From Carcharhinus amblyrhynchos (lineage: Eukaryota), in NCBI GenBank assembly GCA_965287045.1, contig OZ336888.1, positions 30,132,001 through 30,196,000 of the forward strand: 64,000 bases of DNA, written 5' to 3'. The first letter of the stretch is position 1. The number at the start of each line of letters is the position of its first letter. The position numbers and the translations under genes are program-made. Shown here one piece after another: positions 1,976-59,837 of the stretch. The notes beneath the pieces are model-generated. The model searched no databases. It was not told the DNA's origin and worked only from the letters and a program-made list of their open reading frames with translations.

Positions 1976-2043
1976 TACGCAGAACGTAATTCTTCTTCAA
2001 ATATGAACAAACATGAATATTGAAAACTGGCGAATAAACTCAC

Positions 2044-2179
2044 TGATGCTTTTAAATGTTCCCCAGCCTATGTTGTTGCATCCACGAAGGCTTAAATGGA
2101 TCACAAAAGTGCGGTAGTTGCGCAGAATATTTGCTACGTCGGTGTCCTGGACTCGTTTTCTGACTGGGAAAAAATTTAC
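2044..2179 (-). CDS. FBXL13: FBXL13 coding exon, first LRR (VNFFPVRKRVQDTDVANILRNYRTFVIHLSLRGCNNIGWGTFKSI)
   Basis: tttctttccag / gtgagt, 136 nt. LSLRGC is a cysteine-containing LRR motif and follows the F-box exon in frame. Confidence 0.9.
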
Positions 2180-2514
2180 CTGGAAAGAAAAGTTTCAGAA
2201 TGAAGACACAGTAAATTTGTAAGTAATCATAAAGATAATCAAGTTTTTATACAATAACAATCTGGAATGAATCTTTCATATCAAAGCATGAGTTAATTTA
2301 ATTTTTGAAATACAGGTAAATTTCATGTATGAAAACCTAGCAGTCAGTCGGCAGCAGAAAATGTGATAAACAATCTCTTTTTAGGTTGAATAAAAGTTAA
2401 CAAAGGAATATTCAGCAGAGAGTGCAAGAACTCACTACCCTTCATTGATCATCTATCTTTTTTGGACACTAACAAGATGATCCTCCTCTGAGGTCCAAAG
2501 ATACTGACTTATCC

Positions 2515-2725
2515 TTCAGTGCTGAAGGAGGCCAATTGGCCCATCAAGTCTATACCGATTGTCCAACAACCCACCCAGGCCGTATCCCCATAACCCCACA
2601 TATTTTACCCACTAATCCCTCTAACCTACATATCTTGGAACACTAAGAGGCAGTTTAGTATGGCTAATCCACTGAAGCTGCACATCTTTGGACTGGGAGG
2701 AAACTGAAGCACCCAGAAGAACACA
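2515..2725 (-). mobile_element. HE1-type SINE fragment
   Basis: cacatctttggactg..ggaggaaac and ccacccaggccc motifs in reverse orientation. Confidence 0.75.
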
Positions 2726-2974
2726 TCGATAATGTCACTGTCAAATCATGTGGTTCTTAAATCAATCATGCAACCACTTAACTGTTCAATAATATCCTAT
2801 ATGTATTCTTAACTACCTTATCCAACTATCCTGCTGCCTGCAGAGATTTTGCACCCCAAGGTCACTGTAGGCATGCACGCCAAGGTCACCCTGATCTTCT
2901 GTATTTCCACGTGGCCTACCGTTCATTGTGTATTTTCTTGCCTTGTTAGTCCTCCCAAAATGCATTACCAGTCA

Positions 2975-4690
2975 CATTTAGTACTGAAAACTTGTGCCCC
3001 AGAATTCACTGCGCCGCTAGCCAAGGTATTCCAGTACAGTTACAACACTGGCATCTTCCCAGTAATGTGGAAAACTGCCCAGGTATGATCTATACACGAA
3101 AAACAGGACAAATCCAACCCAATCAATTATTGCCCCACCAGTCTACTCTTGATCATCATCAATGTGATGGAAGGAGTCATCAACAGCTTTATCAGTTGGC
3201 ACTTAAGTAGCAATAGCCTACTTCCTGGTGCTCGTTTTGGGCTACACGAGGGCCACTCAATTCCTGATCTCATTACAGACTTGATTCAAATACAGACAAA
3301 AGAGTTGAATTCTAAGGGTAAAGTAACAGTAACTGCTCTTGACATCAAGACAGCATTTGATCAAGTAAGAGACCAAGGAGCCCTAGCAAAACTGGAGTCA
3401 ATGGGAATCAGGGGAAACATTCTGCAAGAGCCAATTATCTCAGTTGCTTCATCAATGATCTTCCTTCCATCATAAGGTCAAAAGAGATGTTCACTAATAG
3501 TTGCACAACCTTCGGCATCATTTGACTCCTGAGGTATTGAAGTACGCTATATCCAAAAGCAGCAAGACCTGGACAATATGCATGCTTGGGCTGACAAGGG
3601 CCATTTAACATTCATGCCACACAACTCCAACAAGAGAGGAACTTCACATTCCACCATTACCCTTCACATTCAATGGTATTACTATCACTGAACATTCCAC
3701 CACCCTCTCCCCACCCCACACTCCCCCACCCCCACTATGAACATTCTAGTGGTTACCATTGACCAGAAACTGAACTAGACTAGCCACATAAATACTGTGG
3801 CTACAAGGTAAGTTAGAGTCTATGAATCCTACAGTGAGCAAATCACCACCTGACTTTCCATTAGCCTGTGCACCATCTACAAGATACAAGTCAGGACTGT
3901 GATGGAATGCTCTTCATTTGCCTGGATGTGTACAGCTCCAACAACACTCAGAACGTCAACGCCATCCAAAACAAAGCAGCCCGCATGATTGACTAAGTGG
4001 CACAGTGGTTAGAACTGCTGCCTCACAGTGCCAGGCCATAGGTTCATTTCCGGTCTTGGGTGACTGTGTGGAGTTTGTATGTTCTCCCCATATCTGCGCA
4101 GATTTTCTCTGACTGTTTGGTCTTGGGTTGACCATGTTAAATTGCCCCTTAGTGTCTAAAGTTGTGTAGGTTAAGTGTATTAGCCACAATAAATGCAAAG
4201 GGTTATGGGGATAGGTCAGGATGGGGCAAGCCTCTTCAGTGCAGACTTGATGGGCCAAATGACTTCCCTCTGCACTGTACAGATTCTATGATTCCCTTCC
4301 ATAAACATTCATTCTCTCCATTACTGATGAACAGTAACAGCAAAGTGTACACCTACAAGGTGCACCGCAGGAATTCACCAAGACTCCTTAGGCAGCACCT
4401 GCCAAACTCATGACCTAGGACAAAGATGGCAAAGACATGGGAACACTACGAACAGGATGTTCCATCCAAGTCACTTACCATCCTGCTTTGGAAATAAATC
4501 ACCATTCCTTCACTGTTGCTGGATCAAAATCCTGGAACTCCTTTCTTAACAGCACAGTGGAAATATCTGCGCCACAGAGATTGCAGTGGTTCAAGAAAGC
4601 AACTCATCACCAACTTCTCAAGAGCAATTAGGGATGGGCAATAAATGCTAACCTAACCAGTGACGGCCACATCCCATCGATGAACAGAAC
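2975..4690 (+). mobile_element. Degraded CR1-like LINE 3' portion, interrupted by a SINE
   Basis: LKTCAPE..APLAK.FQYSYNTG, ALDIKTAFDQV, 3' UTR gcaattagggatgggcaataaatgc. Confidence 0.85.
3997..4294 (+). mobile_element. HE1-type tRNA-derived SINE
   Basis: gtggcacagtggttag A-box, ggttc B-box region, gattctatg tail. Confidence 0.85.
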
Positions 4691-4753
4691 ATTAATCATG
4701 TATAATTTTTATTTTCACAGCAACCATACCAACTTCTCAATCACTAAACATAC

Positions 4754-4849
4754 CTTGCTCCAGAGAGAACTTGTCTGTGCAACCACTTTCCAGAACTGAC
4801 AAACTTGTGCACATCTCACCAGATCCCTAACATCAAGATAGCTGAAAAC
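4754..4849 (-). CDS. FBXL13: FBXL13 coding exon, F-box core (VFSYLDVRDLVRCAQVCQFWKVVAQTSSLWSK)
   Basis: catttttag / gtatgt, 96 nt, matches F-box consensus IFSYL...DL..C..VC..W......LW. Confidence 0.93.
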
Positions 4850-6315
4850 CTAAAAATGAGGAAATGTTTAGAAAATCGTTATTGAATCACAATTGCAGTA
4901 CATTTAACTGTTAAATTAACTTTGCAATCATCAGCATGTGTTTTCCGGTCCATCAATATCAAGCCTAAGAAATTGTTTGACAAAGCAAGTTAAAAATCTC
5001 CTTGATCTCTTGTCTCCATTTCTGATAATAGACTGGTCACCAGTATTTATCATAATTCCATTGACTCTCACAGCTATAACTCCTCCCATACTGCTTCCTG
5101 TAAGGGCTCCATCCCATTTTCCTGGCCCCTATTCCAAAGCTGCCACCTTGAAAATGGCACTTCTTGCATGTTCAAGATTTCCCCTCTTCTGCTGCTGACA
5201 GGGTATTAAACTGGTTCAGACCCATTTCTCACACTTGTACCCTCACCCCTTCCTTTCCCTCCCAGAACCATGAGAAGGTGCCCTCGTCCTCCCCTTTTGA
5301 TCCCACCAGCCTTCACATTCAAACGATCATTCTTCAGCATCTCTGCCAACGTCAGCATGATGCCATCATGAAACACATCCATCAGCATTCAGCAGGGACT
5401 GCTCCCTCAGTGACACCCTGGTCCCCTCCTCCATCACCCCTCACTCCTCATATCCTTCCCAAGTCACCTTTCTTTGCAATTGCAGAAGGTGTAACACCTG
5501 CCCTTTTAACTTCTCATTCCTCACTATTAAGGCCTCAACCACACCTTTTAGAGGAAGCAACATTTCCCTATCACTTCCTTCAGTTTGGTCTATAATATTA
5601 ATTGCTCCAAATGCAGTCTTCTTCACTGGGGAGACTAAATGCAGATGAGTGACTGCTCTGCAGAACACCTTTGCTCAATTTGCAATCATGACCCTGTTGC
5701 ATGCCACTTCAACTCAGCATCATTCCTACATGTCCATCCTTGGCCTGTTGCAAGCTCCAGTGAGGTCCCAAGCAACTTGGAGGAGCAGCACTTCATCTTC
5801 CAATTAGGTATATTACAGCCCTTGAGATTCAACACTGAGTTCAGTAACTTTAGACTATGATCTATTTCCTTTGTCTTGACCTTTTATTTTAATCCAATTT
5901 TTTTTCCCCACACAACACCACTAGCCCCTCCCCCCATACTGGGCCATCTGCCACTTGTTCTTAAGTTTTCCTTTCATTGAGCACTAACCTTTGTTATCCT
6001 GTAGACACATTCTACTTTCTTACCTTGATGCCACTGTCAGCACCTTCTATAGTCCTTCACATTGCCATTAACACTTCCTCCATCTTGTCCCCAACATATC
6101 TTTGTTGCTATCCTTCCCAGCTCTCAACTATCACTGACTTCTACCTTCCTCCATCTACTCCATCTCCTTTTATACACTATATAATCTTTCACATTCCTCT
6201 TTCTCTTTAGCTCTGAAGAAGTCGTATGGACTTGAAATTATAACTCTGTTTCTGTCTCTGCTGTAAGAAGTCTCACAACACCAGATTAGAGTCCAACTAG
6301 TTTATTTGATAGTAA

Positions 6316-6359
6316 TCTCACAAGCTTTCGGAAATGGTGTTCCTTCGTCAGGTGTGTGG
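6316..6359 (-). ncRNA. Minimal type I hammerhead ribozyme motif, mirror copy (sense to FBXL13)
   Basis: Exact reverse complement of the 6965-7008 core. Confidence 0.75.
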
Positions 6360-6964
6360 AAGGTTCTGATCAGAGAAGGGCATATAAAGTCACACACAGT
6401 TTACAGAATACTGATTAGAATGCAAGTCTTTACAGCTAACCTGCTATTCAAGTCATAAAGATGCAGACAACGTGAGTGGAGATAGCATTAGCATAGGTTA
6501 AAGAGATGTGTATTGTCTCCAGACAGGATAGTAAGTGAGATTTTACAAGCCCAAGCAAGTCATGGGGGTTTACAGATAGTGCAGCATGAACCCAAGATCC
6601 CGGTTGAAGCCATCCTATGCATGCAGAACTTGGCTATCAGTCTCTGCTCAGCGACTCTGCGCTGTCGTGTGGTCGGTGAGCAGAGACTGATAGCCAAGTT
6701 CCGCACAAGAGGACAGTCTCAACTGGGATCTTGGGTTCATGTCGCACTACCTGTAACCCCCATGACTTGCCTGGCTTGTAAAATCTTACTTACTGTCCTA
6801 TCTGGAGACAATACACATCTCTTCAACCTATGCTAATGCTATCTCCACTCACAATGTCTGCATCTTTATGACTTGAATAGCAGGTTAGCTGTAAAGACTT
6901 GCATTCTAATCAGTATTCTGTAAACTGTGTGTGACTTTATATGCCCTTCTCTGATCAGGACCTC

Positions 6965-7008
6965 CCACACACCTGACGAAGGAACACCATTTCCGAAAGC
7001 TTGTGAGA
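6965..7008 (+). ncRNA. Minimal type I hammerhead ribozyme motif (PLE-type)
   Basis: cacac-CUGACGA-aggaacaccauuucc-GAAA-gcuu-gug: catalytic boxes, stem II ggaa/uucc, palindromic stem III AAGCUU, stem I cac/gug. Confidence 0.75.
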
Positions 7009-7475
7009 TTACTATCAAATAAACTGGTTGGACTCTAACCTGGTGTTGTGAGACTTCTTACTGCATTTACCTGAGTCCAACGCCGGCATTTCTACATATG
7101 TCTGTTTCTGCTGCCAGATCAGCTGAGTTTTTCCAGAATTTTCTGTTTCTAATTCAGATTTCCAGCATGCGCATGCAAGGTTATATAAACTCTCTAGTTA
7201 TGTTTACCATACCACCAAGTAATAGCTGAATTAGAACTTGTATCCAAATCAGGATTTTGAAAAAAATCTACTTTACCTAAATATAATCTATTTAGAGTGG
7301 GGGTGTTTACCATGCTCAAATTTCACATGTACTAGATAAAGTAATCCTGAAGTTCAAAACAGCTTTTAAATACCTTCAATTTGAATATAGGATTTTGACG
7401 TTGAAACAAAACTGTTCCTAAACCAAATTATATTCCCAGAATCTTATCATTTGCAAGAATTATACGATCCTTTTA

Positions 7476-7655
7476 TAGAATCTCTACAAAGAAGACCATT
7501 CGGCCCATTGAGTCTGCACTGACCACAATCCCATCCAGACCCTATTATCGCAATTCCACATATTTACCCTGCTAATCCCCTGACACTAGGGTCAATTTAG
7601 CATGGCCAATCAACCTAACCAGCACATCTTTGGACTGTGAGAGGAAACCGGATCA
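7476..7655 (-). mobile_element. HE1-type SINE 3' fragment
   Basis: atagaatc..tacа-type tail, tttagcatggccaatcaacctaacc..cacatctttggactgtg. Confidence 0.75.
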
Positions 7656-8034
7656 ACTGTGAATATAATACTAGCTTTTCCAACCTCCAGCTATTGTTTA
7701 TTGATATTCTGGTGTGCTAGGGGCAATATATGTGCAGTCAAGGATTCATTGGACACAAAGAAAGCTAACCATTGCTGCAAATCCCCATGATCTCTTGTTT
7801 TGACTGTTAAGGTCAATGGGCAGTATGTACCGGCTAGCCCTAGGAATAGGGAATTTGTGACTGTTTAATACTGATTTGTAGAGATAAGGGAGATTTCTCA
7901 TGTAGCAGACTGGAAGGAGCCAAAGGCAAAGAGAACCAGGCCTATTAAGGTTGTTGTTCCTCTTCTTCCAACAGTTCCCACATCAAATTAAACCACCAAC
8001 AATGTCACCCATGGTAAATATTGCTTCAGTGGCT

Positions 8035-9185
8035 CTGTGAGACTAATCCTGCCAGTTTCTGCTGGTGGTTGGGGGTACTGGGTAATAAATCCGTGGGTTT
8101 GTATTAAGGTTCATCTGAGGTCCTTTACTTCTGACTCTTTAAAAGTTGGCTGCATTTTAATGAGGTTTTACGATCCTTAAAGTAGGAAGAAAGCTACGCT
8201 GCTCCTAAGCAACAAGCATTTAACTAATCAGTTTTAATTTAGTTGGAAACAGCATTCCGGAAAGTGCCGCAAAACATAGGACATGCAAAGAGGAAGAAAG
8301 CAAGTCTCAAATTAAAGAAGATTCCAAAAACCAGGGAGCAGCAGGAAAAATCCCCAAGAAGAAAGCTGGGGCAAGGTACAAGGACAGGGCTCATACTGGG
8401 GAATAGAGGCAGAGGCTACAAGTTCAAAGAAAAAGCTTCTTGGTGCAGGCCTGGAATAATGTGGGCTTGCAAAAAACCAGGAGATCAGTGGAGACACCAA
8501 AGGTTGGTGATTCTGTACTACAGGCCTGAATAGCAGTGGTGTTATATAGGTACGGATAGTATCAGAGAAATTAGCAGGCTAAGCTTGAAAGCACGTGGCA
8601 GAGTATCATCAGAACGAGAGGCTGAACTCCCGGAGCTGGATTCCTGGTGAAGACATCTCAAAGAAAGCATAATTTGGGAGAAGATTCCAACGTGTGTTCT
8701 TTGAACCAATTTGTCTCACAGAAAATCAATTGTTCACACAAGAATTTCCAATCTCTTCTCAAAGTGTGACAAGCACCGAGCTGGGCTGCAGGTGAAGAAA
8801 AATATTCAGAAATTGTTTTGAATGGCACTTGTCTTTTGCTTTCAGAATGTAGTATGTCTGACTGCAGTTCTCTTATTGGTTTACATGAATTGTGTACTTT
8901 CTGTGAATGTTAGCATATGAGATGGATTTGTAATTTGTGTAATTCTTATGGATCTATAGATATTTCTAAAGGTATGTTGTGGGCGCAGGAGTAGTGTATA
9001 CTGTTCATATTTTGTTTAATAAAATGTTTTATTCTTTTGTTAAAAGCTCATTAACAATCTTTACGACTCTGTTTAGTCGTTAACCTCCACATTTTTGAAC
9101 AAAAAACAAAAGTTAGGATCCATCAAGCTGGGCTCCACCCTAGGATCTGACTTGTCCAGTAGTAGCATCAGCTGGGATCATAACA
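8035..9185 (+). mobile_element. Probable solo LTR
   Basis: TG...CA ends (tgtgagac...cataaca), AATAAA at about 9018, no coding motifs, TSD not evident. Confidence 0.5.
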
Positions 9186-9214
9186 CTTTGCAGACAGATC
9201 GTTTTCATTGGCCA

Positions 9215-9645
9215 AAGTTTCCCATTTCTCAGTTAATGCTTCTGCACTGACTTCTTGTAGAATGCTACAGTGAAATTGCTCTGCCGCTTCTACCACATGC
9301 TCTTCCTCCTGTTTATCACTGGAGGGGTTCTTCCACTTCCCACTTCTCAGTATATGTGCTGTGCCACCTCCTCCCTGAATGCTCCAGTGAAGTCTCTCTG
9401 CTGCCCCTATCAGATGCTCTTCCTCCCATTTATCACTGGAGGGGTTCTTCGCTTCCCACTTCTCAGATGTTGCTGCACTGACTTCTCTCACAATTCTCTA
9501 GCAAAGTCCCTTTGCCACCTCAACCAGAAGTTCTTCTTCCCGTTTATCACTGGAGGGCTTCTTCTGCTTCCCACTTCTCAGTAGATATTGCTGCGCTGAC
9601 TTCTCCCAGAATGTTCCAATTAAGTCCCTCTGCCACCTCTACCAT
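9215..9645. repeat. Degenerate tandem repeat, about 3.7 units of 114-117 bp
   Basis: tttatcactggagg at about 9312, 9429, 9543; ttccca(c/t)ttctcag at about 9219, 9337, 9454, 9568. Confidence 0.85.
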
Positions 9646-9789
9646 AATGAACGAAATCCAAAAGGCACAAATATCAGGTGAGATTGTGGTAAAATTAGGG
9701 AATACCCCAAAAATGTATGGCCTAAATACTTTCCAAGTCATCTAATCCTGAAATAGTACTTCAAACAATTAAGACACCTCAGAGTCATA

Positions 9790-9893
9790 GATCCAAAAGA
9801 GAAAAGGCTGGCAAATCTCAGCAGGTCTGGCAGCATCCGTAAGGAGAGAAAAGAGCTGATGCTTCGAATTCAGATGACCCTTTGTCAAAGCTC
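9790..9893 (-). mobile_element. PLE pLTR fragment with degenerate hammerhead
   Basis: Reverse complement ttgacaaagggtcatctgaattcgaa...gatgctgccagacctgctgag matches the pLTR pieces at 40900 and 49010. Confidence 0.6.
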
Positions 9894-10135
9894 AAAATGA
9901 GCTTCGGATGAGTAATGTCATGGATGACTTGGACTGCAAAATTTCAACTGGTGGCCTGGGATTCCACATGACCTGTGCAATCCATTGCCAGCAGCAAAGA
10001 AAACCAATCATGGTATCCACAATACCATCCAGGCTGTGGGAACATCTCAGAATGCATTTTTGCACTCAAAGAAAAAGACATTCTTCGTATTTGTTGACGA
10101 CTATTCTGGATGGATTGAGGTCAAATGTCTTCATA

Positions 10136-11108
10136 AGACCATCAGACATAGGAGCAGAATTAGGCTGCCTGGCCCATCGAGTTTGCTCTGCCATTCAATC
10201 ATGGCTGATATTTTTCTCAACTCCATTTTCCTGTCTTTTCCCCATAACCCCGATCCCCTTATTAATCAAGAACCTATCTATTTCTGTCTTAAAGATACTC
10301 AATGATCTGGCCTCCACAGCCTTCTGTAGCAGAGCTCTACAAATTCACCACTCCCTAGCTTAAAAAATTCCTTCTCATCTGTTTTATAGGATCGTCCTTT
10401 TAGCCTGAGGTTGTGCCCTCTGATTTTAGCTTTTCTTACTAGTGGAAACATCCTCTCCACATCCACTCTATCCATACCTCACAGTACCTTGTAAGTTTCA
10501 ATAAGATCCCTCTCATTCTTCTAAACTCCAACGAGTACAGACCCAGAGTCCTCAATCGTTCTTCATATGACAAGCTCTTCATTCCAGGGATCATTTTTGT
10601 GAACCTCCTCTGGGCCCTTTCCAAGGCCAGAAAGTTCGCATTTGGGAAATTTCTCCATTTAGAAAATAGTCAATGGACCCTATTTTGCATTACACCCAAA
10701 GTCGGCTGTGAGGCCATTAACATGATCTGCGCCCATGTCTGCGCAGACGGCCACTTTACCTGCATGCATTTAAATTGAATTAATGAAGTGTTCACTCAAT
10801 TTTATCATCATTTCTCCCTTTACCACTGCGTTCATCGATCCAGCATCGCACCAAAATGAACATGCTGAATAGAAGTCTAAATTGGGAGCTCCAGCTGCCA
10901 AAGGTGGGTTCAGAGCTTCCAACAGCTCTCTGACTCAGACTGGGGGGGGGGTTGGATCATTCTCTGATTAGGGGGGAGAGGGGGAGGCGGATCAGATGTA
11001 ACTCTGGTGGGGAGGGGGAAGGGAGGACCAATCGTTGTCTGGTTTGGTTGGGGGGGGGGCGGTGATCATTGCCTGATCGGGAGGTGGGGAGAGGACCGAT
11101 CATTGTCT

Positions 11109-11139
<31 letters not shown>

Positions 11140-12040
11140 CGAGGGCTGGTTGTTGTCTGGTGGGTGGGGAGGGCCGATCATTGTCTAGTTGGGGGAAAGG
11201 AGGAGGGAGGCAGGTCAGATCATTCTCTGCTGAGGGAGTGGAGAGGGAAATGGAGACGGATCAGATGTTCCCCTTAGGGGGGAGAGCGAGGCCAGATCAT
11301 TCTCTGTGGGGGAGAGGGGGGCAGTGAGGACAGATCATTCTGCGGAGGGCAGGGCAGTGAGGGCAGATAATTCTCAGGGTGGGGGGTGGGCGGGGAGAGT
11401 GAGGCCAGATCATTTTCTGGGGGGAGGGGGGGGAGGAAGGAGCCAGATAAGATGTATCTCTGGTGGGAGGGGTTCTGCAGGGCAGATGGATCTCTGGTGG
11501 GGGATATGGAGGGGGGCAGCAGGGTCCGCTGCCACTCTGAGGGCAATCATGGGGGGGAAGGGGGCAGCGGGTCGTAATTGGTCTGGGTAGTGGGTGGGGT
11601 GGATAAGGGGGACAGTGAGGTCTGTGGGGGCCATCACTCCCAGGCCACTTTACCCGCTTTTTGCAGCTTGGGAATGATCTAACACAGGTGCACTTCTTCA
11701 AATCTTTTTCTAATTGCGCATGCGTAGTTCAGAGCTCTGATTGTTTTGGGCGTGATAAACCCCACCCACAGCGTGAATGGGGTCCGCGATTTTATTTTTC
11801 AGGCTAAGTGCATATGGGGACGCCTGAAAGTAGACTTCCAAGTCAGATCTGAATTGTGCCCAGATTCAGCACTTAGAATGAAAATTATAAAATCAGGCCC
11901 AAAGTTCCATTCCTCCTTCCAAAGTGCATAACCTCACACTTTTCCACATTGTATTCTATCTGCCACTTCTCTGCCCACCATCCTAACCTGTCCAAGTCCT
12001 TCTACAGTCCCTGGCTTCCTCAACATTACCTGTCCCTCTA
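10136..12040 (-). mobile_element. CR1 LINE 3' portion (10136-10673 and 11902-12040), interrupted by a MITE
   Basis: QRRFTKMIPGMKSLSYEERLRTLGLYSLEFRRMRG; KCEVMHFG-like segment at about 11920. Confidence 0.88.
10674..11901. mobile_element. Non-autonomous TIR element (Harbinger-like MITE) with G-rich core
   Basis: Imperfect TIRs tggaccctatttt / aaaatcaggccca, splits a CR1, G-run core at 10940-11630. Confidence 0.6.
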
Positions 12041-12293
12041 TTCATGGTCAAACATCAGAAGCAATCATTAAATCACTGAAGGAATTTCTTGCCACACACA
12101 GCATTCCAGATTTAGTAGTTTCAGACTAGTGATTTCCAACCTTTCATATGTCTTGGGACACCTCCTATACGATAAAAAAAATTGAGGCACATCTTATTTT
12201 CTCTGTCTTCTTCCCTTACTGGGAACATTATTTTTAATTCCTCCCTGCCCTCTTGCTTGTTTGTTTTAACCTCTCCCTGTCTCACTCACTTCT

Positions 12294-12698
12294 AAGAGCG
12301 TATTAGGTAGCCGCCCTCAACCGGGATCTGGAGTTCATGTCACACTATCTGTAATCCCCATGACTTGCCTGGGCTTGTAAAATCTCACTTACTGTCCTGT
12401 CTGGAGATAATACACATCTCTTTAACCTGTGCTAATGCCACCTCCACCCACATTGTCTGCATCTTTAAGACTTGAATAGCAGGTTAGCTGCAAAGATTTG
12501 CATTCTAATCAGTATTCTGTAAACTGTGTGTGTCTTTATATGCCTTTCTCTGATCAGGACCTTCCACACACCTGACGAAGGAACACCGTTTCCGAAAGCT
12601 TGCGGGATTACTATCAAATAAACTGGTTGAACTTAAACCTGGTGTTTTGAGACTTCTTACTGTGTTTAGCCCAGTCCAACGCTGGCATCTCTACATCA
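12294..12698 (+). mobile_element. Penelope-like pLTR copy (same family as 6264-7100) with hammerhead at about 12564-12607
   Basis: Collinear with 6716-7097; cctgacgaaggaacaccgtttccgaaagctt; TSD-like tcactcacttct at 12282-12293 and 12696-12707. Confidence 0.88.
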
Positions 12699-12759
12699 CT
12701 CACTTCTCCCAGGGCTTTTGCACCCTTTGAGTTTTTGAGGACAAAGAAGGAGTAAGAAC

Positions 12760-14070
12760 TCACTGCGCAGGGGTAAAGATAGCCAGACCTGCAATGGACA
12801 CACCGTGCTGGGAAAGGATAAAGAGAGAGCCAGGTTCGGGGCCTTCACTTACCTTCTTAGGAGTAGAGACAGCCGGACCTGTGAGGGACACACTGTGCTG
12901 AGGCAACACACTGAGTATGAAAGCATTTCAGGAGTGAGATTACAGGAAAGCAGCAATTTCATTGATTGGTAAATAACTACTAATTTGAATTATCTATTCT
13001 AAGTTACTTTCAAATCAAAGATTAGAAGGAAAATATTTTACAGATTAAAAAACTGAAAGCCTGCTGATTTAAAAAAATACACATTAAAAAAGAATTAAAT
13101 AAAATAGCGACGGAGGGTCAGGCAACATGTTGTACTTGCATGATGTGGGAACTGGGGGACCTCATTGTGGTTCCTAGTGAACATATCTATAGTAAGTGTT
13201 GATTGCTTGAGGAATAGCTGCTCAGAATTGAACAGCTGGAGTCTGAGCTTCGGATGTTGCAACACATCAGTGAGGGAGAGAGCTACTGTGTTTCAGGAGT
13301 CAGTCACACTCCTTAGATTAACTACCTTGAATTCAGTCCATGGTCAGGGACAGGAGGTTATGACTGTGAATGAGACAGGTAGAGAGATCCAAGGGACAGC
13401 ACTGCAGGAACCTCAGTCCTTGTCCCTGGCTAACATTTATGAGATTCTTGCTCCTTGTGTAGATGAGAGAGGGGACTGTAGGAAAGATGAACAAGCTGAC
13501 AATGACTCAATGAAGACCACATGGTTCAACGAGCCGTTCAAGTGGGGAGAGAAAAGACAAATGTAGTGGGGATAGTACAGTCAAGGGAATAGACACTGTT
13601 CTCTGTAGCCAGAATCCAGAGTCTCAAAGGCTGTGTTTGGTGACCGGTGCCAGGATTTGGAACATGTGGACTGGGCTGGAGAGGAACTTAAGGTGGGAGG
13701 GGGAGGATCCAATGGTCATGGTCCATGCAAGCACCAACAATATTGGTAGAACAAGGAAGGGGGTTCAGTGTACACAATTTGAGTAGTTAGGCACTGAATT
13801 AAAGAACAGTGCCTCCAAGGTGATAATTCTGGATTATTACCTGAGCTATGTGCAAACTGACAAAGGGTACGTAGAATTATAGCAATGAATACATGGCTCA
13901 AAGTCTGGTGTGGGAAGAGTGGTTATTGGTTTGTGGGACATTGGTATCAGTATTGGGGAAAATGGGGGGTATACCATCAGGACAGCCTGTATCTGAATCA
14001 TGTTAGGACTAATGTTCTTGCGGACTGTATAACTTGGGGAGTAGAGAGGGCTTTAGACTAAAGAGTCGGG
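12760..14070 (+). mobile_element. CR1 LINE 5' UTR and decayed ORF1 (Cys-rich finger, leucine zipper, SGNH esterase-like)
   Basis: CCTCMMWE..ICSKC-like finger, LEQLESEL zipper, GDSTVKGID and GARI esterase-like motifs. Confidence 0.7.
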
Positions 14071-14429
14071 GTGAGGGTTGCTTGAAAAATTGGGAAGTCA
14101 AAGTGAAAGATAGGAGGAGTGCAGGTGAGTGATCTGTCTGAATGTCAACAGAAAACTACAGGTAGGGACAGATCATATGAACATTACATCAAGGACCCAT
14201 ATAGGAGGCCTAACTAGGAGGGGGAAAGTTCAGAAAATAGAAGGTTTAAAAAATCTGGGGTATATGAGGGAGTGCGCCACAGGATAATGAGAGAGAACTT
14301 GACTATCAGTGTGACAGGCCAGGGCAGGAAACATAAAACAGAAGTATGCAATACAGAGCAAATTCAGAGTTGTAAACAACTAGAAGACTGTTTAACATTT
14401 ATTATTGACAAGATGTTGGGATCATTAAT

Positions 14430-14605
14430 CAAAGAGAAAAAGAACAAAGATCAATACAGCATTGGAACAGACCCTTCGGCCCACCCAGCCTGCAGTGATA
14501 TGTGGTTTCTATCGCTCTGTTCGCTTCCCATTCATGTGTCAATCAAAATACATCTTGAACGTTGCTAACGTGCCTGCTTCCACCACCTCCGCCGGCAGTA
14601 AGTTC
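14430..14605 (-). mobile_element. CR1 3' UTR fragment
   Basis: aaagaacaaaga..tacagca..ggaacag.cccttcggccc tail in reverse orientation. Confidence 0.65.
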
Positions 14606-14835
14606 CAGTGTGAATACAATTGTGGCTTTTTGAAACAGAACATTGCACAGTCAGGCAGCAACAGCCTGCGATAAAGATGGAACATGAGAAAGAAAAGTTA
14701 CGAATTGATTTTAGAGGGTGGCACGGTGGTTAGCACTGCTGTCTCACAGCGCCAGGAACCGGGTTCAATTTCCAGCTGATATCCATGTGGCAAAATCCTG
14801 CCAGGTTTCATACGCAAGTGGATATCAAGCTTATT

Positions 14836-14992
14836 ATGTTCTTATAGGCAAGGGGATTAAGGGTTATGGGGAGAGGGCGGGAAAGTGGAACTGAGCCACA
14901 ACAGATCAGCCATGATCTTATTGAATGGCGGGGCAGGCTCGAAGGGCTGGATGGCCTACTCCTGCTCCTATTTCTTATGTTTATGTTCTTAA
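14836..14992 (+). mobile_element. Young CR1 3' end fragment
   Basis: Near-identical to the reverse complement of 63357-63505, ttcttatg tail. Confidence 0.85.
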
Positions 14993-15109
14993 GTAATGTA
15001 ATAGATGCTGAACATTTGGTTTAAGCATTGATAAAAGAAATTGTGTTTAACTATCTAAAGTAAACTTTGTGCATTTATATGCTAGTAGAGATTAACACAC
15101 ACAGGTTTG

Positions 15110-15355
15110 TCCAACAGCTACAACATAAAGGGCCAATCATTTAAAACTGAGGTGCATAGAAATTTCTTCTCGCAAAGGATAGTGAATTTCTGGAATTCTC
15201 TTCCCCAAAGGGCGGTAGAGACTACATCATTAGGAGTATTTGAATTAGAGGTGGATAAATATTTGATAGGTCAAGCAATAGAGGGCAATGGGGAAATTGT
15301 GCAGAAAAGAAGTTTAGGCCGGAATAGATCAGCCATGATTGTATTGAATGAAAGT
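15110..15355 (+). mobile_element. CR1 ORF2 C-terminal fragment
   Basis: FKTEVHRNFFSQRIVNFWNSLPQRAVE. Confidence 0.8.
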
Positions 15356-15399
15356 CCTGTTACAAAATTTTAACAACAATAATAATCATACAAAGCAAT

Positions 15400-16930
15400 A
15401 ACTCCCTTAATCTTTTATTCCCTACACTTCTTCGCTGTTTTCTCCCAGTATCTGCAGCAGAGTTGGAAGCAGTCTTCTGGCAAGTTTGCCCTTTAGTCTT
15501 GGATGACTTCGGCAGGTATCCTCTGGAGACCAGACATTGGGAGGGCCCCAGCTTCCTTTGGCTCTTTTGATGTAAGGCAGGTATTCCCTTCAGTCACAGA
15601 GGACAAAGCTGAAGGGGTCACAAGCAAGAGGGATTCTGAAGGAAAGTACTGAATGAAAGTCCCAGAGGTATCCAACAGAATGTGAGACCCTGCCTGAACT
15701 AGATCTGGTATCTGTCTCTAGGCAGGTGGAGGGTGCATGTGCCTGCTGTGATGATTCTCCAAGTGCACTTTTGTCCTCCTCCCCAATGTCCTCAGTTCTC
15801 TGTGGACTGGATGAATTTCTGGACAGAGCATCTTCTCCTGGCCTCACCCTCTTCCTTCAGGCACCTTAAATGAGGGAGGAAAGAGAGCAAGTGACTGCAT
15901 GAGCTGCAGTCATCAAGGAGCAAAGCATGATCTAGAGGTTTCTATCTGACTATATTATACATGGAATCTTTACTGGATGGGTGAAGCTTCTCCATCTGCA
16001 TGGTTCACCCCTTTAGCTACCAGCAGAGCTGCCGGCTCCTCAAAATATATAATGTTTCTCAGCGCAGGCTCCCTTATGTCTTCACTCTCCCTCTCTCTCT
16101 ACTGCTGTGCTGTAACTTCTCCTATGCAAAGAGAGAAGATAATGTTAAGAGCAATGGGGCTTCATGCATCTTTCTCATGCTTTCAGTCTCATAAATAACC
16201 TACTGGATTGTATGCCATATGATTCATGGACTGCAAGTTCTCCACAAGGGTTCTGAGGCAGAGTGTGTGATCCTATGCAGATATCCTATGTTCATAGAAA
16301 CATATCATTGACAGTACTTGCTGGTGCCCTCAACACCTAACTTACTTCCCCACCCCTAGGCAGCGGCTGAGCTGTCTGTGTTGAAGGATCAGGGACCCAC
16401 AGCAGCCTCTTCATCTGCAGACTTGATGGACTACAGTGGGTCTAAGAAGGATTACCTTATTATGTTGAGCAGCTGTTTTATGTTTTGGTCCACCCTTGCC
16501 ATTGAAATCCATACCCTCCACATTCAGTGAGATGTGTGAGGAGTTGAGGGAATACTTATCTTGGTAGCATAGATGAGATCATTCATCTACTTCCAGTATC
16601 GCAGGGAATCCTTCAGTGAAAAATAACAGCACTGACCACCCTGGTGACTTCTTCCCACGCAGGGTTGGTCACAAGGTTCAGTCTCGTCCTTCCATTTTCA
16701 TGGTATGGAATGCCTCTCTTGGCCTCTATAACATTGAGCAGCACATTGAGGGAAGTGTCACTGAATTTAAGAGCTGGAGCTCCCTGGGATCAGTGGGCCA
16801 TCTCCTCCTTCCATGATGGATTCACGTGAAAGAAGTTGATGTCCAGGTGCCTTTTACATATTACACCTGAATATGATGGTGCAGCGCACATCATTCACCA
16901 TGCATGTCGTGCATTACATCAAGAAACCCC
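15400..16930 (-). mobile_element. Decayed PIF/Harbinger remnant encoding a Myb/SANT-like protein
   Basis: Minus-strand translation of about 16560-16790: APALKFSDTSLNVLLNVIEAKR...TNPAWEEVTRVVSA, then a frameshifted K.MNDLI. Confidence 0.6.
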
Positions 16931-17129
16931 TGATTGCATAATTAATCAGCCCAGCATCACATGAATTTTCACTGGGCTCTGCAGTGGTAAACACTCCTGG
17001 TTCCCGCCCCCACTGCAGGACTTAATGACAAGGGCACCATCCATCTGGCCCATACATAAAAGAGCTACTCAACATGAGATGGTAATGTCCCGTGGAAAAT
17101 CCCAGACATACAGAAAATCCCCGGCTTAT

Positions 17130-17400
17130 GTACCACATTATCAATTTTGTATCATGTGCAAACTTCAGGATTGTACTTCCTGCACCCAAGTCGTTTACAA
17201 ACAACAAGAAAGCTAATACTGGTATCAGGGAATCCCATTGCACATTTCCTCTGTAGCTAGAAAACCACTACTCTCTGCCTCTTAAAAGTTTAACTGACTA
17301 CTTACCCAAGTTTATCACCATTCCGTATAATATCATGTGCTTCTATTTTCCAAATAAATCTGTTAGTGGTATATCATTAAATGCCTTTTGAAAATCTATA
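17130..17400 (-). mobile_element. Highly decayed CR1 RT fragment
   Basis: LLFVNDL..STILKFAHDTKL; DFQKAF-like motif. Confidence 0.6.
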
Positions 17401-18339
17401 CCTTCCATAGAACTAACACCCATACTGGAATTTTCAGACTAGATAAAGCAATAAATCAGTTGAATTATTCAAAGGTCCATTAAACACAAGTTTTCAAAAA
17501 ATATGTAAGTTTATTGATGTTATATTTCTGTATTTTAAATGAACTGCTCATACATGTACAAATTACTATAAAATCTGTTGAAAACCACTGTGTACTCCAT
17601 ATTGCACTGAACCCACAAAGCCTAACAGGTGATAAGAGAACTGCATCTTTAAAATTTGAATAAATACTCTGGTTTTAGCAACTGTGCCACAGAAGTGCAA
17701 GAGGGAGAGGCCTGTATTTATCAATCTGCTCCACCATATAAAATTCTAGGATGGTTTATAATGTAAAAAGGGCAGCACCCATAACATTTACAGTGTTACT
17801 GCAGACAAAGCTTGAGAGAGAAATTGAATTTCAAAGAGTGCCTTGTTCTTCAGCTGAGATGCAGGTAGTTTGACCAAAGATAATTATTTAATGTTGACCT
17901 GTTTCTTCATCAATTTCCCATTTTCTCCACTGTCAACTGACTTCTTAGACATAGATTCCCATTGCAATTTGAACATGCTGATGTTAGGTCCATTTATGAT
18001 ACTTGTGCAGCCTATTTACCTGCATCGTGCTGATATACGTACTAACAATACACACTGCAAGGATTGCAACGTGAGTTGTGGGGTACAACAAGTTTCTCTC
18101 ATAACATTGGAATTTCACAATACAGCTGGAAGGAAACTGAAACAGCTTGCATTTGAAATTCCTTCATCTTCACAAATTACTTCTATTTCCAGAATTGGTC
18201 AGAATTTTTAAACTTTGATTTCTGATATCCTCGTTTGTACTTATTTACAGACATATAAAGTATCTGCTCATACATTTAAGTATCCTTTAATGTAACATAC
18301 CAGAATTAAAGTAAACAAAATAGAAATATAACACACTAC

Positions 18340-18435
18340 CTTTAGTGCAGCTGGCCAAGGTAAGAGGAAAATAATATCTTCCACACCTGCCAAATGTATA
18401 TCAGTCTCATCATCCAATTCCCCTCGTTCCAGGCG
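18340..18435 (-). CDS. FBXL13: FBXL13 coding exon, start of F-box (RLERGELDDETDIHLAGVEDIIFLLPWPAALK)
   Basis: tctctccttatag / gtagtg, 96 nt. The LLP...LK motif is the start of an F-box. Confidence 0.9.
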
Positions 18436-43792: not shown

Positions 43793-43947
43793 AAGCTTGT
43801 CGCCTCTTTTGGAACAGCACCCATGTCATCCATGCATCAAATGCCCTTTTTAATTTGTTAGTTCTATAAAAATGTTCAGCCTTTATTGCATATTGGAGCA
43901 TTTTCATCCGCCGCCTTTTTATGCTTCTGATATACAACTGCCATCCA
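43793..43947 (-). CDS. FBXL13: FBXL13 coding exon (GWQLYIRSIKRRRMKMLQYAIKAEHFYRTNKLKRAFDAWMTWVLFQKRRQA)
   Basis: cttttttttcag / gtgagt, 155 nt, lies within ORF 43671..44051, phases consistent on both sides. Confidence 0.9.
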
Positions 43948-59480: not shown

Positions 59481-59837
59481 GACTCTGATTGGTAGAAGTA
59501 TTGCCATGGAGAATGCATGAAGCAACTGATAACGATCAGTTAACTGCCAAGTTTCATTAAATTCAAACCAGGCAAATTGCCTGAGATTGGTCAAGGCATT
59601 ATTCCGGGGCATGACTAGAGAATGGCTGCTGCTGATTTTTGTATAGTTGAAACAGGTGCACTGTTTCAGCTAAACAAAGTAAGCGACAGCCACTGCCTGG
59701 TTCATTCCCCAGGGCAAATACCTGGACCGCTCTGAGACATCTTGCTTGGTTTAAATTGAAACAAAGATTGGCAGTTAATTGTGAGTCATCAGCTGATTGG
59801 TGCATTCTCCATGGCAATGCCTCTATCAATCAGAGTC
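59481..59837. repeat. Imperfect palindrome of about 360 bp, probable foldback of a third PLE pLTR family
   Basis: gactctgattggtagaagtattgccatggagaatgca / tgcattctccatggcaatgcctctatcaatcagagtc; centre tgaaacag-gtgca-ctgtttca. Confidence 0.85.

Follow-up and report, generated by a model that had tools for sequence, protein, structure and literature searches.

The window, a stretch of 64,000 nucleotides of the Carcharhinus amblyrhynchos genome, contains an insertion of 837 bp (6264-7100) with direct repeats on either side, placed within an intron of a gene read from the minus strand. The features concerned are as follows, in order of position.

4754-4849, minus strand: host exon encoding the second part of an F-box (Pfam F-box-like, E 1.4e-11)
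6213-7172, plus strand: older repeat serving as the target (6213-6263 and 7101-7172; the left part also as 5300-6263), with 553 first-look candidates
6251-6263, no strand: left TSD, 13 bp, which is the modal TSD length of 40 family foldbacks
6264-6671, minus strand: left arm, a 5′-truncated, tail-less copy of the 3′ end of a Penelope-like element (PLE)
6319-6354, minus strand: minimal type I hammerhead motif that reads as sense in the host pre-mRNA, with cleavage predicted after 6322
6573-6670, minus strand: frameshifted remnant of the GIY-YIG endonuclease ORF, covering its last ~32 codons (tblastn E 1.3e-07 against the endonuclease of the relative L013)
6672-7060, plus strand: right arm, a second 5′-truncated copy, head to head with the left arm
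6672-6753, plus strand: frameshifted remnant of the endonuclease ORF, covering its last ~27 codons (tblastn E 2e-06)
6970-7005, plus strand: minimal type I hammerhead motif that reads as antisense in the host pre-mRNA, with cleavage predicted after 7002
7061-7100, plus strand: one-sided, unpaired tail of 40 nt, of a type described in parts of PMC8557442 and PMC11167929
7101-7113, no strand: right TSD, from the sequence and the family TSD statistics
12316-12696, plus strand: a single family copy that entered this intron independently and bears a hammerhead motif of its own at 12572
18340-18435, minus strand: host exon whose end encodes the first F-box residues, predicted from splice signals and reading frame

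Host gene

The insertion lies in a 13.5-kb interval (4850-18339) that is predicted to be an intron splitting the F-box. Cysteine-type LRR exons occur further along the minus strand, in the 120 kb downstream, and an LRR gene on the opposite strand is nested in a downstream intron (L035:7557-8552(+), L033:3584-3799(+) and L032:44-424(+)). We take the host and the nested gene to be FBXL13 and LRRC17, respectively. A protein look-up returned only generic LRR names, and no protein matched a putative exon further upstream (43794-43943) when this was used as the query. The earlier note had placed the insertion in an FBXL13 intron: the exons and the Pfam match support an intron of an F-box/LRR gene, while the name FBXL13 is plausible from synteny, because the nested LRR gene mirrors LRRC17 in FBXL13, a nested gene pair listed in the excerpts of PMC3933685 at hand. 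The coding part of the nested gene stops ~26 kb before the insertion, so a plus-strand transcript of the insertion would arise only by read-through, and the nested gene was set aside as a source of plus-strand transcription.

Anatomy of the insertion

Both the 837-bp extent and the flanking 13-bp repeats described previously were found in the sequence, the repeats (6251-6263 and 7101-7113) with one mismatch. The inverted arms, which had been put at about 390 bp, align with 92.9% identity over ~394 columns and differ by 24 substitutions in 389 ungapped columns. The 40-nt unpaired tail was likewise recovered, whereas the short loop that had been thought to separate the arms is not a spacer: its 16 nt (6656-6671) are the unpaired 5′ overhang of the left arm, which extends 16 nt deeper into the element than the right arm. 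The head-to-head arms with a tail on one end match the inverted pLTR and 3′ tail expected of a PLE insertion. RNA of the minus strand of the insertion is predicted to fold at -705 kcal/mol (z = -48), a value that none of 20 shuffles matched. An assembly artefact is excluded by the 24 arm-arm differences, the TSD and the presence of the junctions in other sequencing runs.

Identity and abundance of the family

The Penelope-like origin proposed in the earlier note was borne out, in that longer relatives carry RT and GIY-YIG and the arms hold the last endonuclease codons. On their 5′ side, the longer copies (L013 and L027) retain coding sequence for RT, followed by a Cys-rich linker and then a GIY-YIG domain. 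Pfam RVT_1 was detected in these relatives at E 3.7e-07, over the cut-off in one of two pieces, and Pfam GIY-YIG at E 2.6e-04 and 4.7e-04, both slightly below the cut-off. A Zn-finger-like linker of the form CxxxxCxxC lies between RT and EN in L013, L027, L011 and L029. In the sections of PMC8557442 available, RT followed by a linker of the CX2-5CxxC type, with GIY-YIG at the C-terminus, is the layout of Neptune and Nematis PLEs. By this domain layout the family is probably a Neptune-type PLE; Nematis has the same linker, and RT phylogeny would separate the two.

The family is very common, with thousands of copies. The right arm gave 9149 first-look candidates in the 2.9-Gb genome, and pattern searches found 130 exact copies of the 32-nt hammerhead and 816 of the 34-mer downstream of it. 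Since the exact 34-mer is carried by 3/28 to 10/28 sampled arms, the subfamily would number ~2,000-8,000 arms. In the pre-mRNA, the single copy at 12316-12696 has antisense orientation, and pairing between it and the left arm is possible too (92% over 308 nt).

The repeat that received the insertion carries a decayed hammerhead-like string at 6213, and its translation looks Penelope-like. An older Penelope as its identity was rejected after BLASTP (E 0.19) and tblastn gave no support. Other family copies were seen in or beside the same target repeat (L071, L119 and L003); a mild preference of the family for it is possible, the repeat itself being abundant.

The foldback shape among family insertions

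Ninety family loci were drawn in three samples (best matches, exact hammerhead, and exact downstream 34-mer), and eight were dropped as duplicates or second arms of one insertion, leaving 82 distinct loci of ~3.4 kb, too short for a full element (direct pLTRs around a full ORF). In this non-random set, in which foldbacks get two chances of being drawn, 40 of the 82 loci were head-to-head foldbacks (the insertion at 6264-7100 counted), eight had an inverted upstream piece, and 34 had no inversion at the sensitivity used. Both arms spanned the hammerhead in 20 of the 40 foldbacks. The sample least bound to length or motif yielded 15 foldbacks and four loci with both hammerheads among 24. With about half of the sampled insertions foldback-shaped, the insertion in the window is most likely ordinary transposon debris.

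A tail was present on one arm only in 37 of the 40 foldbacks, the other arm ending ~35-40 nt short (P 2e-08 against independent choice). TSDs of 10-18 bp flanked 35 of the 40, with a mode of 13 and a cluster at 12-14 bp; in the null set of 400 mismatched end pairs, 4.3% had TSDs of at least 10 bp and none reached 13, and the TSDs are therefore not due to chance. The untailed arm extended further 5′ in 20 of the 37 foldbacks with a one-sided tail, the insertion in the window among them. Breakpoints varied between foldback loci, and the junction of the insertion had one match in 2.9 Gb at ≤1 mismatch, as had the reversed control. Each foldback is therefore a separate integration, and the unit has not spread.

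Other arrangements were also noted. The inverted upstream pieces at eight loci (L003, L004, L005, L018, L023, L029, L047 and L066) do not overlap and resemble L1-type twin priming. One exact hammerhead pair is in tail-to-tail order, the opposite of the usual one (G000:C18:20964398-20964819), and the window holds a further short inverted pair at 59481-59837, with 70-nt arms and 217 nt between them.

The 5′ ends of short copies (loci L043-L103) cluster 2-19 nt upstream of hammerhead C3, equivalent to ~6954-6971(+). In the hammerhead sample this pile-up took in 13 of 29 anchors; among ends collected independently of the motif, it accounted for 16 of 64. A 10-bp palindrome lies here, together with a small hairpin and a pyrimidine tract that terminates in CAG, and the spot may be where the RNA begins or a 3′ splice site; the latter has a precedent in Drosophila Penelope, as described in part of PMC4209133. 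No upstream exon sequence common to the copies was found that would indicate an origin from spliced RNA.

Age and divergence of the arms

Runs X6 and X9 each have one contig that spans the right junction, with 14 differences in 451 for X6. The left junction is crossed by X2, X5 and X7 contigs by 21-25 letters, short of the 31-letter rule; the X6 contig ends at 6226 on this side, and contigs of X15 and X19 (~6% diverged) start at 7139, short of the right junction, so that they showed no empty site. From these junctions in related organisms, the insertion is older than splits with ~3% flank divergence. Neutrality permits, and does not require, its retention in those organisms.

Divergence from the family majority is 4.8% for one arm and 4.3% for the other, similar to other copies, and the 24 substitutions between them compare with 27.4 expected for unrelated copies. 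The arms of the insertion have thus decayed like unrelated copies. Across the family, foldback arms were 19% closer than unrelated copies (414 versus 509 substitutions; lower in 26 of 34). The mutational spectra of foldbacks and other copies were similar, and an ADAR/APOBEC signature in the DNA was rejected.

No sign of selection on the motif after insertion was seen. Across the family, loss of the catalytic G8 and G12 kept to the rate for CpG sites: CpG-borne G8 and G12 had changed to A in 11/62 and 11/68 arms, compared with 81/429 for other CpG G. Non-CpG core positions had eight rare changes versus 13.2 expected (P 0.09). All 12 core bases were kept in 49 of 69 arms, and two intact cores are therefore unremarkable.

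The differences between the two arms are unevenly spread. Twenty substitutions fall in the inner half and four in the 207 columns of the outer arms (6264-6470 versus 6860-7060), which are nearly identical (scan test P 0.0095, uncorrected), and the 61 nt around the hammerhead show no arm differences. With gaps counted, the inner arms differ at 24 in 187, above any of 351 unrelated pairs. The same lean appears in one or two of eight other long foldbacks. The uneven divergence and the closer foldback arms speak against a wholly neutral history; a common source RNA together with some gene conversion would explain both.

Arm-to-arm gene conversion that homogenised the outer arms with their hammerheads, with no function involved, is a possible addition to the main explanation given below, and one that we hold tentatively, at odds clearly below even. 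The identical runs of 104 and 61 nt speak for it, as do three derived bases common to both outer arms and the four differences in 207 columns, a figure equalled by only 0.3% of the 351 unrelated pairs. However, just one of the three shared bases is rare in the family, much of the signal comes from the excess in the inner arms, and P rises to ~0.08 when the nine long foldbacks are allowed for.

The hammerhead motifs

The motifs at +6973 and -6351 are the same letter for letter, as the earlier note had claimed, and its predicted cuts after 7002(+) and 6322(-) are consistent with the sequence. Their classification as minimal type I also stands: core boxes, the helix II pair G10.1-C11.1, the palindromic 15.2-16.2 and NUH match the minimal hammerheads in the portion of PMC4209133 consulted, which share the core boxes, an extra base after position 9, and the lack of helix III. 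Helix II (4 bp) and helix I (3 bp) of the motif in the insertion are shorter than those given there for Schistosoma (7-8 and 4-5 bp). The AAGCUU described as stem III is indeed a palindrome; the helix III that a dimer would form, however, comprises only the 4 bp of AGCU, A14 and U17 belonging to the core. Rfam gave no match of any kind in the window at gathering. With E relaxed to 10, it brought up only models of generic hairpins and snoRNAs, far under the cut-off, and still no hammerhead, which is what a motif lacking helix III should give; the miRNA-like matches at 6622-6705 were discarded as the tip of the hairpin.

CUU cleavage sites are weak. The open hammerhead is predicted to fold at -4.8 kcal/mol, compared with -83.7 kcal/mol when the 43-nt motif pairs with its antisense, in agreement with the proposal that the hairpin would bury the ribozyme. 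That the antisense arm is made first also holds, following from the orientation of the arms in the minus-strand host pre-mRNA. Isolated arms folded no better than shuffles, and the minimum free energy structure of a two-copy hammerhead RNA differed from the dimeric hammerhead. Arm 5′ ends coincided with the predicted cut in 3 of 64 cases. No second sense hammerhead of this family was found on the minus strand in the 184 kb covered, which hold part of the gene.

Opposite-strand pairs of minimal hammerheads separated by 100-700 bp are reported from Schistosoma in the part of PMC4209133 consulted, which records no cleavage by a single minimal hammerhead and low cleavage by dimers. According to sections of PMC11167929, an anole PLE hammerhead cleaves only with the protein of the element and is dispensable for insertion in vitro. 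We predict that the one sense hammerhead in the host pre-mRNA is silent because of its 3-bp helix I, the absence of helix III in the monomer, the lack of a partner in cis and pairing with the antisense arm. Masking in the pre-mRNA is likewise predicted from the folding, with little activity to mask and no evident route of unmasking.

Origin of the insertion

We conclude, with a probability of roughly 0.86, that the insertion represents one old event in which two 5′-truncated Neptune-type ends came to lie head to head, that it was likely built by integration, and that it is likely inert. The steps outlined here are inferred from footprints in the DNA and from in vitro work on a PLE of another clade. 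The endonuclease of the element would nick both target strands 13 nt apart, giving rise to the TSD. Each nick would then prime a cDNA, one at the end of the RNA tail and the other ~40 nt inside, and both cDNAs would stop within the last endonuclease codons. The two would be joined at an imperfect microhomology, such as that present at the junction of the insertion, which is a natural inverted pair of the element, and the two hammerheads would be passengers of the two pLTR copies. Passive editing of the hairpin in the host pre-mRNA, as of other inverted repeats, is plausible. In the anole PLE, both strands are cut and extended from two RT start sites (PMC11167929, in part), and an inverted 5′-truncated copy with a 30-40-bp tail is typical of PLE insertions in the passages of PMC8557442 at hand.

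The same origin could instead have involved self-priming, or snap-back, of a single cDNA or antisense RNA into a hairpin, the tail being trimmed at resolution. Excerpts of the literature offer both halves of this course, self-priming for head-to-head PLE palindromes (PMC3846280) and a tail attributed to endonuclease resolution (PMC8557442); the microhomology at the junction, the overlapping junctions of 17 of the 40 foldbacks and the closer foldback arms agree with it. A copied arm, however, cannot carry a tail that its template lacks, and in 20 of the 37 foldbacks it is the longer arm, made first, that has no tail, so simple self-priming is insufficient and would further require that either arm can be trimmed. 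Two cDNAs on the RNA of one source element would also be expected to give closer arms. We consider self-priming unlikely.

The earlier note had suggested a candidate self-regulating ribozyme switch. In a selected switch of this kind, the antisense arm would mask the hammerhead until it is freed by editing or by helicases and cleaves the host intron. The order of synthesis and the hairpin are as that suggestion requires, both cores are intact and identical, and the insertion is retained in related organisms. Nevertheless, the full 12-base core is present in 49 of 69 arms regardless, the dual layout recurs in 20 of 82 sampled loci, and the foldback is the usual shape of the family. The second sense copy that would be needed was absent from the family motifs counted in the 184 kb, the CUU site is weak, no trigger is evident for unmasking a duplex of 390 bp, and nothing shows selection on the motif, all of which makes such a switch very improbable. 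It would be just as improbable that arm-to-arm gene conversion keeps the outer 200 bp, with both hammerheads, near-perfect and that the host uses edited dsRNA to gate a protein-assisted cut in the FBXL13 intron that splits the F-box.

A non-autonomous retrozyme-like or MITE-like unit moving as a whole, the least probable reading and one largely refuted, would fit a short, non-coding-looking, TSD-flanked, hammerhead-bearing insertion and the derivation of retrozymes from PLE pLTRs (bioRxiv 10.64898/2026.07.22.740005, in part), but the junction was found once, equal to the reversed control, breakpoints differ, the arms hold ORF remnants, and the head-to-tail units that define non-LTR retrozymes, with at least two same-strand hammerheads, were not present at the insertion.

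Comparison with known systems and implications

Intronic inverted Alu pairs form long imperfect dsRNA in pre-mRNA and are likely passive ADAR substrates; the present hairpin differs from them in deriving from one insertion event, in its 16-nt loop and in belonging to an unrelated element. A close likeness is to Adineta Pen2a_Av and other EN+ PLE insertions (PMC3846280 and Fig. 2 of PMC8557442, as excerpted), which share the head-to-head arms, a 30-40-bp tail on one end, a TSD and a pLTR hammerhead. Unlike in those insertions, both copies here are ~400 bp with no ORF between them, and the TSDs of the shark family (10-18 bp) are longer than those of the rotifer cases (8-10 bp). Non-LTR retrozymes, in the sections of bioRxiv 10.64898/2026.07.22.740005 consulted, likewise derive from PLE pLTRs and carry type I hammerheads, but they are head-to-tail tandems with hammerheads on the same strand, whereas the insertion is a lone head-to-head unit.

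Earlier publications already describe inverted copies and tails, as well as pairs of hammerheads on opposite strands (PMC8557442, PMC3846280 and PMC4209133, as far as their excerpts extend), and the supplements of these papers may include examples from cartilaginous fish. A literature search at the level of titles found nothing on point for natural hammerheads that an inverted repeat would mask, in connection with ADAR.

The locus itself matters little, and the family provides a usable natural data set on the integration of PLEs. One start site per arm in 37 of 40 foldbacks, TSDs of 12-14 bp and an untailed arm that is as often the longer one together favour two primed cDNAs over simple snap-back, which fits the in vitro result in the available part of PMC11167929. 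By estimate, the genome would hold at least hundreds of such long intronic or intergenic hairpins, and this set may represent a load on dsRNA surveillance, a question for the genome-wide scale.
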